This document shows, one piece after another, positions 28,197 through 62,024 of a stretch of DNA of 64,000 bases (its first letter is position 1; every line of letters starts with the position of its first letter). Source of the DNA: an uncultured Gammaproteobacteria bacterium (GTDB lineage: Bacteria; Pseudomonadota; Gammaproteobacteria; UBA9214); the NCBI GenBank assembly GCA_963748215.1, contig CAVVHS010000006.1:928001-992000 (forward strand), in the 5' to 3' direction. Below the pieces are notes generated by a model. That model was not told the DNA's origin and ran no database searches. It saw only the letters and a list, made by a program, of their open reading frames with translations. A program made the position numbers and the translations under genes.

Positions 28197-28543
28197 TCTC
28201 GCGCACGACTACAAGGAGAAGGTGAGACCGGGAACCGGTCGAGAAGCTGGCCTGGGCCATGCAGGAGATACGAGTCCATGGATGGACTCGATAGAGCGAA
28301 GCAGGAGAAGGTGAGATCGCGCAACGATCGAGAGACTGGCCTGGGCCAGGCCGGAGCCGAGAGCAATGCAGGGAGCAATTGCCGAGAGACGCAGAGAAAG
28401 AAACGCCACAGAAGGCACAGAGCACACAGAGAAGGTCATTGTCATTCCCGTGCAGGCGGGGATTACATGTATACGTTCTGCGCCTGCCGTGATCCCTGTG
28501 GCAACAATTTGATTTATTTTGCGAGCTCTGCGACTCGCGCGAG
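28197..28543. repeat. Concentric nest of palindromic repeats containing four tiny inserts (2 x 48 nt, 2 x 42 nt)
   Basis: Outer IR tctcgcgca^gagacgcagag / ctctgcgactcgcgcgag; inner IR gccacag / ctgtggc; central gtcattccc hairpin; 180-nt insert block 28206-28385. Confidence 0.8.
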
Positions 28544-48822: not shown

Positions 48823-51584
<2,762 letters not shown>

Positions 51585-51674
51585 CGAGCCACCTGCTGAC
51601 CAAATCAAGGGATCAGCGCTTTTCTTACCCGAACTCCGTGCGATGCGCAATCGTTATTACAGGAGGACAATAAC

Positions 51675-51965
51675 GGGGTCAGCACCCTTTACTCACTCGG
51701 CCGTCTATTGCAGTCCAGGTTTCGGTAAATATAAAAAGGTACTGACCACATCTGTCCAAAATACCCCCTCTCCCTCCGGGAGAGGTCTGGGGAGAGGGGA
51801 TCAAATCAAGCCAACCGCCTGATTTTCCATCGCCTCATCCTGGTCGCTCACGGCATCCTGCCTCCCGCGACACTTGTACATCCCTGTACATCGTCCTTCT
51901 CCCGGAGGGACGCCGACAGGGATGTCGGCGGTAGAGCAACGCATGGAGCATTTGCCGAGAAGGGA
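51675..51965. repeat. REP cluster: GGGGTCAG hairpin plus CCCTCTCCC-type pair, the second arm carrying two tiny inserts
   Basis: 51675-51749; 51764-51799; 51833-51965 with inserts at 51844-51893/4 (minus) and 51911-51958 (plus). Confidence 0.8.
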
Positions 51966-52111
51966 CGCGCTGTTCATGTAATGATGTATAGCTTTCATGT
52001 CCTGTCGCTATCAACCGCTCCGTACAATGCGTTCATTCATGGACTTACTGTACCTCAGTCAATGTATGCGGCACAGCCATGGGTGCTGACCCATTTCCAG
52101 GCCACCGATCC

Positions 52112-55100
52112 CTACACTGCCGCCAGCTGTACCGCCTCGTCGATATCCACCGCGACCAGGCGCGACACGCCCGGCTCGTGCATGGTCACACCGGTCAGCT
52201 GCTGCGCCATTTCCATGGTGACCTTGTTATGCGTGATGAAGATGAATTGCACCTGTTCCGACATCTTGCGCACCATGTCGCAATAGCGGCTGACGTTGGC
52301 GTCGTCGAGCGGCGCATCCACCTCGTCGAGCATGCAGAACGGCGACGGGTTGAGGCGGAAAATCGCGAACACCAGCGCGATCGCGGTGAGCGCCTTCTCG
52401 CCGCCGGACAGCAGGTGAATGGTGCTGTTGCGCTTGCCCGGCGGGCGCGCCATGACGGTCACGCCGGTGTCGAGCAGGTCTTCGCCGGTCAGTTCCAGGT
52501 AGGCATGGCCGCCGCCGAACAGGGTCGGGAAATTTTCCTGCATGCCCTGGTTGACGCTGTCGAAGGTATCCTTGAAGCGGCTGCGGGTCTCGCGGTCGAT
52601 CTTGGCGATGGCGTTTTCCAGCGTCTGCAGCGCCTCGATGAGGTCGGCATGCTGCGCATCCAGGTAGATCTTGCGCTTGGACTCTTCCTCGTATTCCTCG
52701 ATGGCGGCCAGGTTGATCGGCCCCAGGCGCTGGATGCGCTGTTCCATCTTTTCGGCCTGCTCGGCCCACAGTTCGACCGTCGCCTCGGCGTCCATGTGCT
52801 CTAGCAGCAACTGGTATTCGAAGCCGGAGGCATTGATCTGCTCCAGCAGCGTGTCGGCACGCGTCTTGATTTCCTGCCAGGCCATGCGGTCCTGGGCCAG
52901 CTGTTCGCGCTGGCTGCCGATGGCGCGTTCCTTGCGGATGCGTTCCTGGTCCAGCTCGCGGGTGCCGTGCTCGATGTCCTCCACCTGCTTGCGCGCCGTA
53001 CCCAGTTCGGCCTCGGACGCGGAGCGCCGCGACAGCAGCCCCTCGAGCTCCTGTTCCAGCTCGACGATCGGGGTATCGCCCTGCCCCAGCACCACGGCCA
53101 GTTCATCGCGCCGCGTGACCAGCTGCTTGCTCTGCTCATGCATGCGCAGCAGGGCCTGGTCGGTCGAGGCCTGCGCGGTTCGTGTCGACTCGGCGCGGAT
53201 GGCGAGTTCGTGCGCGGCCTGCTGGTCGGCGCGGGCCCGTTCGCGCGCCGCGTCCAGCACGCCGGCCAGCTGTTGCTGTTCGCCGATGCGCTGCTCGCGT
53301 TCGTGGGTCAGGGCCTCGGTGGCGGCCAGCGCCTCGTCGAGCCGGTTGCGCGCCTCGGCCTGTTCCTGTTCTTCCTTTTCCTTTTCGGCGCGCAGCGCTT
53401 CCGATTCCATCAGCACATGGTCACGGCGGTGCTGCTGCTGTTCCAGGCGCGAGCGGTTGGCGGCAAGGCTGCCACGCAGGTCGCTGGCCTCGCGGTGCGC
53501 GGCATTGTATTCGTTCTGCAACTGGTCGCGTTCGGCCTCGGCGCTGCGCAGGCTTTCGCGCGCGGCGTCCACGGCCTCGCGCAGGGTCTCGATTTGCCCG
53601 GCCTGCTGCTCGCTGCGTTTGGTCAGCGCAGCGATGTCACGCTCGCGTTCCAGCACGCCGGCCTTTTCATCGGTGTCGCGCGCCACGCGCAGCCACTGCC
53701 GGCCGACCCAGATGCCCTCGCGCGTGATAACGGACTCGTGCGCAGCCAGCCGGTCACGCAGTGCCAGCGCATCGGCCAGCGAATCGGCGGCATAGATACC
53801 ATCCAGCAGACTGGCCATCGACCACGGTGCAGTGATCCTGTCGGCCAGCAGCACGCCCTTGCCGCGGTCGGCCGTGGCATCATTCTGGCCGGCGGTCTCG
53901 AACAGGGCCACGTTGCCCTGGTCCAGCCCACCCAGCACCCGCTCGGCGTCGTTCAGGCCGTCGACGCAGATCGCCTCCAGGTAGAAACCCAGCGCCGTCT
54001 CGATGGCGTGCTCCCAGCCGGCATCGACCTTGATGGATTGCGCCAGGCGCGGTGCGGACTGCAGGCCGTTGGCCTTCAGCCAGCCGCTGACCTGCTCGGA
54101 ACGCTGCCCGAGTGCGGCGCGCTGCAGTGTCTCCAGCGAGGCCAGCTGGCCTCGCGTGGCATGCTGTTCGCTCTGCAGCGCATCGACTTCCTGTTCCTGC
54201 TGGTAGATCCGGGTGCGCAGGTCGCTGATATGACGCACCGCGTTTTCCAGCTTTACCTGGATGCCGGAGACCACGGTTTCGCGACCTTCCAGCCGTTCTG
54301 CCGTCTGCCGGATCTCGTCCATCAGCGACTGGCCGCCCAGCGTCTGCTGCTCCTCGCCCATGCGCTGCAGCCGGGTATCCAGCTGCTGCACGTGGCGCTC
54401 GAGGTGATCGAGACGGGTGCGCTCGACCTGCGCCGACTGCGTACGCTCCGCGGTACGGCGGTTGAATTCGTCCCATTCCGACTGCCAGGCGCGCATCGAC
54501 TGCTCGGCCTCGGCCAGTTCGCCGGCCGAACGCTCGACGCGCTCGCGTGCCGCAAGCAGGTCCGGCTCGATGGTCGCGATGTTCTGTGCCAGTTCCTGCA
54601 GCCGCGCACTGTCCAGCCGGATGTGCGTCTCGATCTCGCCCAGGGTCTGCTCGACGCGGCCCAGTTCCTGCTGCTGTTGCTGTCGGGATTCGCGGTTGTG
54701 CTGGATCGCCTGCTCGATGCGCGCGACATCGGCACCCAGCTTGTAGTAGTGTCCCTGCACCTCGCTGAAGGCATCGTTGGCGTCGGCCAGCCCCTCGCGC
54801 AGTTTTTCCAGTTCCGCCTCGATACCGCGCTGTGCGGCCACCTCGGCTTCCAGTCCCAGCTCGCACTCCTGGATCGTGCGCTGGCGTTCGCTGCTCTGCT
54901 CGTGCATGGCGTGATAACGCAGCGTCAGCAGTTCCGCCTTGACCTGGCGTTCCTCTTCCTTGAGTTCCTTGTAGCGTTCCGCCGCGCGCGACTGGCGCTT
55001 GAGCTTGTCGAGCTGTTTGTCGATCTCTTCCAGCAGGTCGTTCAGGCGGTCGAGATTCTCGCGCGTGTGGCGGATGCGGTTTTCGGTCTCGCGGCGGCGC

Positions 55101-55624
55101 TCCTTGTACTTGGAGATGCCGGCGGCCTCTTCCAGGAAGGCGCGCAGATCGTCCGGCTTGGCCTCGATCAGGCGCGAGATGGTGCCTTGCTCGATAATGG
55201 AGTAGCTGCGCGGCCCGAGGCCGGTGCCGAGGAAGATATCGGTGATATCGCGGCGCCGGCAGCGCGTGTTGTTCAGGAAATAGTTCGAGGTACCGTCGCG
55301 CGACACCTGGCGCCGAATGGAAAGCTCGTTGAAACCCGCGTACTGGCCGCCGATGGTGCCATCACTGTTGTCGAAGGACAGCTCGATGCTGGCGTGACCG
55401 ACCGGCTTGCGGCCGTTGGAGCCGTTGAAGATGACATCCGTCATCGAATCGCCGCGCAGGTTCTTGGCAGATGACTCGCCCATCACCCAGCGCACGGCAT
55501 CTATAATATTGGACTTGCCGCAGCCGTTCGGACCGATGACGCCGACCAGGTTGCTGGGCAGGTGGATGGTGGTCGGATCGACGAAGGACTTGAATCCGGC
55601 CAGCTTGATTTTGGTCAAGCGCAT
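52112..55624 (-). CDS. smc: Chromosome segregation protein SMC
   Basis: GFKSF, GPNGCGKSN, long coiled coils with hinge, LSGGEK, LDEVDAPLD. Confidence 0.97.
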   Translation of the reverse strand: MRLTKIKLAGFKSFVDPTTIHLPSNLVGVIGPNGCGKSNIIDAVRWVMGESSAKNLRGDSMTDVIFNGSNGRKPVGHASIELSFDNSDGTIGGQYAGFNELSIRRQVSRDGTSNYFLNNTRCRRRDITDIFLGTGLGPRSYSIIEQGTISRLIEAKPDDLRAFLEEAAGISKYKERRRETENRIRHTRENLDRLNDLLEEIDKQLDKLKRQSRAAERYKELKEEERQVKAELLTLRYHAMHEQSSERQRTIQECELGLEAEVAAQRGIEAELEKLREGLADANDAFSEVQGHYYKLGADVARIEQAIQHNRESRQQQQQELGRVEQTLGEIETHIRLDSARLQELAQNIATIEPDLLAARERVERSAGELAEAEQSMRAWQSEWDEFNRRTAERTQSAQVERTRLDHLERHVQQLDTRLQRMGEEQQTLGGQSLMDEIRQTAERLEGRETVVSGIQVKLENAVRHISDLRTRIYQQEQEVDALQSEQHATRGQLASLETLQRAALGQRSEQVSGWLKANGLQSAPRLAQSIKVDAGWEHAIETALGFYLEAICVDGLNDAERVLGGLDQGNVALFETAGQNDATADRGKGVLLADRITAPWSMASLLDGIYAADSLADALALRDRLAAHESVITREGIWVGRQWLRVARDTDEKAGVLERERDIAALTKRSEQQAGQIETLREAVDAARESLRSAEAERDQLQNEYNAAHREASDLRGSLAANRSRLEQQQHRRDHVLMESEALRAEKEKEEQEQAEARNRLDEALAATEALTHEREQRIGEQQQLAGVLDAARERARADQQAAHELAIRAESTRTAQASTDQALLRMHEQSKQLVTRRDELAVVLGQGDTPIVELEQELEGLLSRRSASEAELGTARKQVEDIEHGTRELDQERIRKERAIGSQREQLAQDRMAWQEIKTRADTLLEQINASGFEYQLLLEHMDAEATVELWAEQAEKMEQRIQRLGPINLAAIEEYEEESKRKIYLDAQHADLIEALQTLENAIAKIDRETRSRFKDTFDSVNQGMQENFPTLFGGGHAYLELTGEDLLDTGVTVMARPPGKRNSTIHLLSGGEKALTAIALVFAIFRLNPSPFCMLDEVDAPLDDANVSRYCDMVRKMSEQVQFIFITHNKVTMEMAQQLTGVTMHEPGVSRLVAVDIDEAVQLAAV

Positions 55625-61283: not shown

Positions 61284-62024
61284 ATGGCTGTTAAAAAGAA
61301 GGCAGTAAAGTCAAAGGCAACGAAGAAGAAGACCGTCTCCAGGGCAAAGCCGGCCAGGAAAACAACAGCAAAGAAAGCCGCCCCTGCCAGGAAAGCCGCA
61401 CCGAAAAAAGCCGCATCGAAAAAAGCCGCACCTGTAAAAAAAGCCGCGCCGAAAAAAGCTGCCCCTGCAAAGAAAGCCGCACCGAAAAAGGCCGCACCTG
61501 TAAAGAAAGCCGCGCCGAAAAAGGCCGCCCCTGCCAGAAAAGCCGCGCCGAAAAAGGTCGCCACATCCACCCGTGCAGTCACGACGGCACGGAAGAAAGC
61601 CAGCGGGCAGATCGGACCCGTGCCCGGCATCGCGGCGTATGCCGAAAAAAGGGGCGAGGAATACATGAATGACAAACAGGTCGCGCACTTCCGCAATATC
61701 CTCCAGGCCTGGAAGCGCAGCCTGATGGAAGAAGTCGACCGTACCGTGCACCACATGCAGGACGATGCCGCGAATTTCCCGGACCCGAACGACCGTGCAA
61801 CCCAGGAATCCGAATTCAGCATGGAACTTCGCGCACGTGACCGCGAGCGCAAGCTGATCAAAAAGATCGAAGAATCGATTCGACATCTCGACAACGACGA
61901 CTTTGGTTACTGCGAGGCCTGCGGCGTGGAAATCGGCGTCAAGCGGCTCGAGGCACGTCCGACCGCGACACTGTGCATCGACTGCAAGATCCTCGACGAG
62001 ATCCGCGAAAAGCAGATGGGCTGA
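61284..62024 (+). CDS. dksA: RNA polymerase-binding protein DksA with N-terminal histone H1-like repeats
   Basis: EEYMND, FPDPNDRATQE, CEACG..CIDC Zn finger; KKAAP repeats. Confidence 0.95.
   Translation: MAVKKKAVKSKATKKKTVSRAKPARKTTAKKAAPARKAAPKKAASKKAAPVKKAAPKKAAPAKKAAPKKAAPVKKAAPKKAAPARKAAPKKVATSTRAVTTARKKASGQIGPVPGIAAYAEKRGEEYMNDKQVAHFRNILQAWKRSLMEEVDRTVHHMQDDAANFPDPNDRATQESEFSMELRARDRERKLIKKIEESIRHLDNDDFGYCEACGVEIGVKRLEARPTATLCIDCKILDEIREKQMG

Follow-up and report, generated by a model that had tools for sequence, protein, structure and literature searches.

Two kinds of described system are close to the locus considered here. The Rickettsia palindromic elements (RPEs) are short palindromes that have spread genome-wide and often lie in frame within housekeeping genes, where they add a peptide to the product (PMC10969869, in its excerpted text). 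The second kind is defined at the level of RNA. According to excerpts of PMC4347634, the SELEX consensus of the regulator CsrA is RUACARGGAUGU, in which ACA and GGA are invariant and the GGA is presented in a hairpin loop; the consensus derived from RsmE reads A/U-CANGGANG-U/A (excerpts of PMC6849547). The spacer between smc and zipA of an uncultured gammaproteobacterium carries a 51-nt segment whose family resembles both. Its surroundings are listed below in coordinates of the window, i.e., the whole stretch of 64,000 nt that was analysed.

52112..55624, minus strand: smc (1170 aa; ORF with Pfam matches to SMC_N, 6.9e-66, and SMC_hinge), with the element in its 3' region
51958..51968, minus strand: left part of the host repeat (GCGTCCCTTCT), split by the 48-mer (paralogue comparison)
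51910..51957, plus strand: 48-nt (16-codon) relative of the mini-element, in opposite orientation and 16 nt from the 51-mer (clean insert relative to the C8 paralogue)
51894..51909, minus strand: right arm of the host-repeat palindrome (CCCTCCGGGAGAAGGA), with the 51-mer directly 3' (paralogue comparison)
51843..51893, minus strand: 51-nt copy of the mini-element, CGATG...GAGCGAC (sequence; empty paralogous site)
51875..51890, minus strand: hairpin 1 of the 51-mer, TGTACA-GGGA-TGTACA, which contains GTACAGGGATGT (predicted folds; stem covariation)
51843..51871, minus strand: hairpin 2 of the 51-mer, with outer stem GTCGC/GCGAC, internal loops GGGA and GTGA, and inner hairpin GGCA-GGA-TGCC (predicted folds)
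51733..51842, minus strand: remainder of the host intergenic repeat, which begins right after the 51-mer (paralogue comparison)
51757..51785, minus strand: terminator-like hairpin CCTCTCCC-GGA-GGGAGAGG, then GGGTATTTTG, downstream of the 51-mer on the smc strand
50841..51650, minus strand: zipA ORF (Pfam ZipA_C, 3.8e-38), with the likely ATG at 51584 and the longest start, a TTG, at 51650

An earlier, sequence-only reading of this DNA had placed a mini-insert between smc and zipA, and the neighbours assigned by Pfam (SMC, ZipA and LigA, all on the minus strand) bear this out; the N-terminus of ZipA is kept in a genus relative. The insert sequence given at the time is exact to the letter for 51893..51844 of the minus strand, and the C at 51843 brings the unit to 51 nt (51893..51843, minus strand, CGATGTACAGGGATGTACAAGTGTCGCGGGAGGCAGGATGCCGTGAGCGAC). 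The CG...CGA ends described for it are those of a unit that starts with CGA and finishes with GCGA(C). That the unit is a true insert is shown by a paralogue of the host repeat in the same genome (G000 C8:55300-55080, reverse strand), in which GGGAGAAGGA runs uninterrupted into CAGGAAGAGG (that is, GCGTCCCTTCTCCCGCCGGGAGAAGGACAGGAAGAGG), whereas in the window exactly 51 nt separate GGAGAAGGA from CAGGATGAGG. Relative to this paralogue, the host repeat of the window contains two clean inserts: one of 48 nt (51957..51910), which interrupts the CTTCTCCC/GGGAGAAG palindrome within its left arm, and the 51-nt unit right after the right arm. The remainder of the host repeat (51733..51842) is 84% identical over 114 nt to C8:55212-55099. 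The 48-mer carries its GGA loops on the plus strand, with an ACAGGGAUGU-loop hairpin and a second hairpin (fold z = -3.7); it has at least 24 BLAST matches in the genome and is present also as a clean 48-nt insert in some copies of the MITE family described below.

The smc-zipA spacer of this genome measures about 460 nt and is composed of a repeat mosaic. Only 28 nt separate the smc stop from the conserved zipA leader in G002, the closest genus relative (smc 91% identical), and the spacer of another genome (G008) contains a different repeat, which indicates that the mosaic is recent. The terminator-like site (stem 51785-51767) is the only one in 51550-52200 (shuffle mean, 0.3), and the 51-mer would belong to the 3' UTR of smc if this predicted site is used. 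The placement of the copy between the smc stop and the terminator-like hairpin would suit a generic REP-like role, in which the unit stabilises the 3' end of the smc mRNA or contributes to a terminator, and in which nothing specific attaches to the GGA loops; the hairpins are stable, and both are retained in the predicted fold of 261 nt (window 51740-52000). We consider such a role improbable, since it leaves unexplained the strict loop letters on freely covarying stems, the in-frame copies in genes and the unbiased orientation, all documented below, and the orthologous spacer of G002 does without the whole mosaic.

The two GGA-loop hairpins that had been claimed for the unit are recovered in the predicted folds of both RNA and DNA. 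In both predictions, hairpin 1 of the window copy has a 6-bp stem and a GGGA loop; hairpin 2 is predicted to have a 5-bp outer stem, an internal loop, a 4-bp inner stem and a GGA loop. The RNA fold of the 51-mer reaches -19 kcal/mol (z = -3.4; none of 200 shuffles was as stable), and its DNA fold has a z of -4.2. The match to the CsrA SELEX consensus proposed for hairpin 1 is complete, with GTACAGGGATGT agreeing with RUACARGGAUGU at 12 of 12 positions, and a 16-mer of the insert occurs once in the window against an expectation of 0.01. The GGA motifs at element positions 11-13 and 36-38 are spaced by 25 nt. A CsrA dimer can bridge paired GGA sites over a range of roughly 10-63 nt, within which this spacing falls. 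The window copy also carries a G>T exchange at element position 44 (CCGTGAGCG), which the sequence-only reading had not noticed; it removes one of the four GGA motifs of the family and introduces a TGA into the reading frame of the in-gene copies.

Such agreement with the SELEX consensus, together with the spacing of the two sites, favours an explanation of the family as a mobile CsrA-binding module, in which RNA binding of the two GGA hairpins is the selected property and copies persist by wiring transcripts into the Csr network or by jointly titrating CsrA in the manner of a sponge. At this locus, the 3' UTR of smc would come under the influence of CsrA, for which the window copy has the appropriate arrangement (sense to smc and upstream of the terminator-like hairpin). 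We regard this explanation as possible but doubtful in view of the tests described further below.

For an nhmmer search of this genome (E up to 1), 73 copies from other genomes were combined into a profile, which gave 48 matches, about 20 of them full length, with the window copy as the top-scoring match (60.4 bits). Perfect 12-mer matches to the SELEX consensus occur ten times in the genome, against 0.88 expected under an order-0 model, and all ten lie within the element family, which is a further point in favour of selected CsrA binding. Many of the family matches sit in a MITE family with the ends TAGCCCGCATTTCTCACCGGG (G000:C6:112247-112746 and about 45 other places). The basic form of this MITE has 126 nt between its ends, and nested mini-inserts extend it to 246, 296, 350, 460, 500 and 650-690 nt. 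The 246-nt form reads from GTACTTG directly into CTCTTCA; in the 296-nt form, the 51 nt lie in between. The 51-mers themselves also receive inserts: a second 51-nt subfamily is nested in reverse within the 51-mer, between AAGTG and TCGCG, and other mini-inserts are nested inside hairpin 2. According to ad hoc ORF calls (3019 genes, 80% coverage), none of the 48 matches is a convincing in-gene copy; the borderline cases are two in tiny, low-scoring ORFs and two that lie right at the 5' end of a called ORF.

Several other repeats were encountered in this genome. A third family of mini-inserts (GGAGAAGGTGAGACC..GGTCGAGAG.CTGGCCTGGGCC) is represented in the window at 28214-28267 and 28303-28356, 89 nt apart, and nests also in the MITE and in hairpin 2 of the 51-mers of other genomes. 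A tandem array directly after a gene end (L254, G000:C7:66066-67047) comprises 8.2 copies of a 120-nt unit with 95% matches; each unit contains three GGA motifs (CACGGAAG, CACGGAAA and GCAGGATGC) and a GTAG-type palindrome and has no Rfam match. It may represent an array of REPs or, alternatively, a candidate sponge for CsrA. Window positions 61347-61559 consist of 15/18-nt periodic repeats (AAAGCCGCACCGAAAAAAGCC and similar; repeat family D1), which would encode a lysine/alanine/proline-rich repeat protein if they are coding.

Copies in other genomes were collected in two sets, one with the exact hairpin-1 pattern from species-representative genomes (genome set; at least 114 stretches) and one with the hairpin-2 pattern from metagenomes (metagenome set; at least 121 stretches). 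The labels among the matches listed include Ectothiorhodospiraceae, Thiohalophilus, Sedimenticola, Acidiferrobacteraceae, Sulfuricaulis, 'Muproteobacteria', Chromatiaceae and others. When up to 3 mismatches were allowed, 39 of 401 genomes from across the class contained the hairpin-2 pattern, against 3 matches for the reversed control pattern. A genome of 2.1 Mb (G417) has 57 pattern matches, and G419 has 10 (unpublished data). Among the matches listed, three copies (L007, L012 and L029) are on MAG contigs labelled Halobacteria or Phycisphaerae, which may be mis-binned, given the otherwise gammaproteobacterial range. The metagenome contigs also contain tandem head-to-tail arrays of two to three units of 50-51 nt (L138, L139, L145, L165, L181, L186, L187, L194, L251 and L253). 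At seven loci (L138, L145, L146, L165, L173, L196 and L231), a unit directly follows a T-run that resembles a terminator end.

Because the metagenome copies were gathered via hairpin 2 alone, they provide an unbiased view of hairpin 1. Among the matches listed, GGA is present at positions 11-13 in 116 of 131 metagenome copies, and the covariation set consists of the 101 distinct sequences among these 116 copies, which were chosen for that GGA. In this set, again among the matches listed, the pairs of hairpin 1 are distributed as follows.

Pair 5-18: GC 83, CG 5
Pair 6-17: UA 49, CG 36, AU 4, UG 3, GC 2
Pair 7-16: AU 72, GC 17, CG 3, UA 1
Pair 8-15: CG 93, with no other pair type
Pair 9-14: paired in 48, effectively unpaired
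Pair 4-19: paired in 40, effectively unpaired

On these counts, hairpin 1 of the family is a 4-bp variable stem with a C-G closing pair and the hexaloop A-N-G-G-A-N. Covariation scores 0.191, compared with 0.088 for shuffled data (none of 500 as high), and the score drops to 0.02-0.09 when the partners are slid. Hairpin 2 covaries likewise at pair 24-50, with UA in 61 and CG in 30 of the 101 distinct sequences among the matches listed. Fixed in hairpin 1 are C8 (94 of 101), A9 (94) and G15 (100), whereas the two N positions differ widely among the same distinct copies listed (N10: A 11, C 8, G 58, T 24; N14: A 24, C 18, G 10, T 49). The core CANGGANG is found in 90 of the 101 distinct copies listed and is bordered by A/U and U/A in 72. 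The fixed letters of the family are thus the letters of the CsrA/RsmE consensus, and the positions that are N in the consensus vary freely. The same applies to the second hairpin in the genome set, where 76 of 113 copies are in register and 55 of these distinct: C34, A35, GGA and G40 are kept in 53-55 of the 55 distinct copies among the matches listed, N39 is variable, and pair 33-41 switches from G-C to A-T. Fixed loop letters with free N10 and N14 on a covarying stem, and a second CA-GGA-N-G 25 nt away, speak for selected binding of CsrA; for a signal read in DNA, the letter-for-letter match in 90 of the 101 copies listed would be a striking coincidence.

Insertion of the family in frame within genes had escaped the sequence-only reading, and the window copy itself is intergenic. 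The in-gene scan against Pfam covered frames without a stop over 150 nt or more to the left and to the right of the copy (75 in the genome set and 116 in the metagenome set) and relied on Pfam because GC3 frame calling is unreliable for the metagenome loci. Pfam matches were obtained for 25 frames of the genome set and 39 of the metagenome set, among the matches listed, and the copies in them are distributed over the following frames.

Genome set, sense frame ..C GAT GTA CAG GGA .. (peptide DVQGSTSVAGGRMPGAT): 25 of 25 copies, 14 with domains on both sides
Metagenome set, same sense frame: 30 copies, 11 with domains on both sides
Metagenome set, antisense, two frames: 12 copies, 5 with domains on both sides
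Metagenome set, another sense frame: 1 copy, with a domain on one side only and none with domains on both sides

These counts are for the matches listed, with 43 copy rows in total for the metagenome set. Hosts in the genome set comprise Lpd, RecG, ValRS, IleRS, PBP1A, E2, TopA, ClpB, MetH, ferrochelatase and others among the matches listed; one of the three Lpd rows (L005) is from unpublished data. The five antisense hosts with domains on both sides, among the matches listed, are DUF489, RsmB, GloB, a Mur ligase and GcvT. Over both sets, the 30 listed copies that have a Pfam domain on each side divide into 25 sense and 5 antisense, although several hosts form orthologous pairs and the independent events are therefore fewer, an estimated 20 or so sense versus 5 antisense; in the metagenome set, 11 of the 16 such copies listed are sense and 5 antisense. 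Stop codons do not explain the choice of frame, given that the used frame is open in 98 of 101 distinct copies and a sense frame that is never used in 100 of 101. The excess of sense copies in genes argues for selected CsrA binding and against a purely selfish element, but it may reflect only the tolerance of the host proteins for the peptide. A 36-nt variant that lacks the inner part of hairpin 2 (CGATG..TCGCGGGAGCGAC; L030:300-335) lies in frame in a ferrochelatase gene and is likewise a multiple of three.

In the host repeat, the MITE copies and recG alike, a filled site is longer than its empty counterpart by exactly 51 nt, and none of these three shows a target duplication beyond one ambiguous C. 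The features of classical MITEs are absent, as the ends are direct (CGA...CGAC) and no target-site duplication is present. Among the matches listed, the base after the unit is a C in 54 of 72 copies of the genome set and in 78 of 112 of the metagenome set; a one-base target duplication of C was rejected because copies that start with T still have a C after them. A fixed target word of 4-5 nt on the 5' side, as used by elements derived from IS200/IS605, is absent among the matches listed, the most frequent 3-nt left flanks being GGA (11 of 72) and CGG (9 of 112). Insertion into palindrome loops was discarded as a general rule because the effect is weak: flanks pair over at least 6 bp in 8.3% of the 72 genome-set copies listed against 2.3% of controls, and in 5.4% of the 112 metagenome-set copies listed against 3.1%. 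Judged by local GC skew at 45 loci, a replication-strand bias is absent as well (19 leading versus 25 lagging, 1 unclear).

Orthologous presence and absence could be followed in the recG genes of 12 genomes of one order. The insert is present in two (G417 and G418), the site is empty in seven by alignment and in one by length, and two are not resolvable. The recG flanks of non-carriers are 84% and 83% identical to those of G417, against 80% in the carrier G418; this patchy pattern implies that the insert was precisely lost more than once or that this one site gained it repeatedly. Both inserts are identical at 51 of 51 positions, in flanks whose third codon positions are about 52% identical. 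This identity could reflect constraint or recent movement; subject to ascertainment bias, it hints at constraint on resident copies and thereby counts to some degree against a purely selfish element. The view that resident orthologous copies prove purifying selection was given up, as it is weakened by the ascertainment through a pattern that both copies had to match and by the patchiness at recG. In the recG loci of this order (L259-L270), the empty sites read GAAGAGTC followed directly by CGAGATG, and the insert is bordered by the 4-nt direct repeat CCGA, which would allow precise loss by slippage.

Candidate mobilising enzymes are encoded in the carriers. This genome has five Y1_Tnp genes, and Y1_Tnp is present in all five high-copy carriers tested; no TnpB was found in this genome. 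Around the six Y1_Tnp loci examined, there was one partial element within about 0.9 kb of the gene and no pair of elements flanking it.

Whether the similarity to CsrA ligands has consequences at the level of RNA was addressed in several ways. The csrA gene, which the sequence-only reading needed for its regulatory proposal, is present (PF02599, 91.6 bits, C5:13308-13463), and residues 1-51 of its product are nearly identical to the solved CsrA structure 7yr6_E (E = 2e-27), in keeping with selected CsrA binding. Co-occurrence with csrA is uninformative because the gene occurs almost throughout the class (it is present in 36 of 39 genomes with the element versus 348 of 400 overall; the tallies take in the unpublished genomes G057, G159, G313 and G325), and three carriers, which are 82%, 73% and 95% complete, have no csrA match. 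The strand bias relative to transcription that such sites should show did not appear: intergenic copies between co-directional genes are sense at 8 loci and antisense at 11. Nor is the tolerance of G·U pairs expected of a one-strand RNA seen, with 11 G·T versus 9 A·C stem mismatches in 606 cells, which are small counts. Together with the antisense 48-nt relative at a distance of 16 nt and the antisense copies in genes, the unbiased intergenic orientation leaves the proposal that the elements serve to spread paired CsrA sites unsupported. What stands of the sequence-only reading is a discrete, dispersed and nesting mini-insert with two GGA hairpins in a genome with csrA; what does not is CsrA binding as the purpose of the element. 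The alternative that it had offered, a GGA loop that serves as a mobilisation signal, fits the negative results at the RNA level at least as well.

A search for related RNAs gave equally little. The Rfam scan of 51000-52600 with E up to 10 returned only two chance-level matches to unrelated families and none to TwoAYGGAY or a sponge sRNA, and five GGA-rich intergenic regions had no Rfam match at E up to 1. The attempt to locate native Rsm sRNA genes by a GacA-box motif yielded 18 weak intergenic matches, none of them convincing. Seven RNA runs matched the genome with word shares of 0.05-0.09; short contigs from four of them comprised smc pieces of relatives and copies of the 51-mer or of nearby repeats with foreign sequence around them. 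None of these contigs spans the spacer, and they are uninformative on transcription of this locus. The letters of the unit make it likely that CsrA binds element RNA in vitro, but the tests give no sign that binding at the RNA level is what selection maintains.

Two related ideas combine mobility with the Csr system. According to the first, which we consider very improbable, mobilisation or maintenance of the element involves an RNA step with CsrA as a host factor. The one point in its favour is the coincidence of mobility with a CsrA-type RNA motif; against it, the intergenic orientation is unbiased, and we know of no precedent. A broader version, which we put forward only tentatively, holds that the cassettes of 48-51 nt evolved to spread paired, near-optimal CsrA hairpins or to use CsrA as a host factor. 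They might then, with the same reservation, reach 3' UTRs, intergenic transcripts and housekeeping coding regions in many orders of Gammaproteobacteria, and could conceivably, though we doubt it, act as a transposable 'plug' into the Csr/Rsm network or as a dispersed CsrA sponge.

We favour, as an evenly balanced judgement, the explanation that the family is a selfish mini-element whose hairpins are the signals of its own propagation. The element is real and mobile; the data show its discrete 51-nt gain without target duplication, its nesting, its multiple copies and its broad range, and also that one orthologous site carries it in some genomes and lacks it in others. The flagged segment would be a resident intergenic copy of a non-autonomous mobile mini-element of 51 nt (17 codons) that appears to spread within and between genomes of many gammaproteobacterial lineages and to enter other repeats, intergenic DNA and genes, the latter with the frame intact. 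The features conserved in the family, i.e., two hairpins with changeable stems and loops that keep C-A-(N)-GGA-N-G, may be cis-signals for a host or transposon protein that acts in trans during mobilisation, probably on single-stranded DNA. By analogy, the candidate enzyme is a Y1/HUH transposase. The smc copy would be a recent arrival in the repeat mosaic of the smc 3' region and would have no dedicated regulatory job; if it is co-transcribed with smc, the RNA would present two nearly ideal sites to CsrA and would probably be bound by it, as a side effect.

Selfish propagation is supported by the exact 51-nt differences between empty and filled sites, the nesting, the 28-nt spacer of G002 and the patchy occurrence in recG. 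It is in line with the absence of orientation effects (8 versus 11 intergenic loci; 19 versus 25 replication strands), with the equal frequencies of G·T and A·C mismatches (11 versus 9) and with the 5 antisense copies among the 16 in-gene copies listed for the metagenome set. Also the lost GGA and the in-frame stop of the window copy are as in a decaying resident copy, and Y1_Tnp genes are present in this genome and in 5 of 5 high-copy carriers tested. Against it, only one of the six Y1_Tnp loci examined has a partial element nearby, and the analogy with IS200/IS605 fails several tests because there is no target word, no strand bias and no TnpB.

The significance of the family depends on whether CsrA binds it. 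If CsrA binds in vivo, the connections of a global post-transcriptional regulator would be changed by a mobile element in many lineages, even within essential genes, which would represent a new route by which regulatory sites spread. If it does not, the family is still notable: for an in-frame mobile element its 51 nt are unusually few, it inserts cleanly and its loss is apparently clean as well, and it would extend the 'selfish DNA inside genes' of Rickettsia to free-living Gammaproteobacteria. The carriers include sulfur oxidisers (Sedimenticola, Thiohalophilus and Sulfuricaulis). For annotation, the 51-nt units account for odd inserts of 17 residues in conserved proteins and for intergenic repeat mosaics. 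No published description of the 51-nt element was found in the literature on CsrA repeats, the 16-mer and RPE-type in-frame elements outside subscription journals.

Each of the known systems shares part of this picture. TwoAYGGAY RNAs (RF01731) also have two hairpins with GGA-containing loops, but 51000-52600 has no match to them at E up to 10. Like REP/REPIN-RAYT and elements derived from IS200/IS605, the family consists of small hairpin repeats that cause no target duplication and are presumably mobilised in trans; unlike REP/RAYT and IS200/IS605, it has no GTAG-type head, no pair flanking any of the Y1_Tnp genes examined, no fixed 5' target word, no replication-strand bias and no TnpB. The sponge RNA CsrB is composed of many CAGGA(U/C/A)G repeats. 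With the ligands of CsrA and RsmE and the sponges CsrB and RsmZ, the 51-nt unit shares the GGA hairpin loop closed by C-G and at least two GGA motifs per unit; unlike the sponge sRNAs, it is a dispersed DNA repeat with unbiased orientation to transcription and not an sRNA gene. The resemblance of the family to RPEs is one of behaviour: its length of 51 nt is a multiple of three, and copies lie in frame within unrelated protein genes. By contrast, RPEs measure about 150 bp and belong to Rickettsia, whereas the present unit is shorter, occurs in many gammaproteobacterial lineages, nests in other repeats and conserves CsrA-type hairpin loops. The nearest known systems are the RPEs with respect to behaviour and the CsrA ligands with respect to the form of the RNA.
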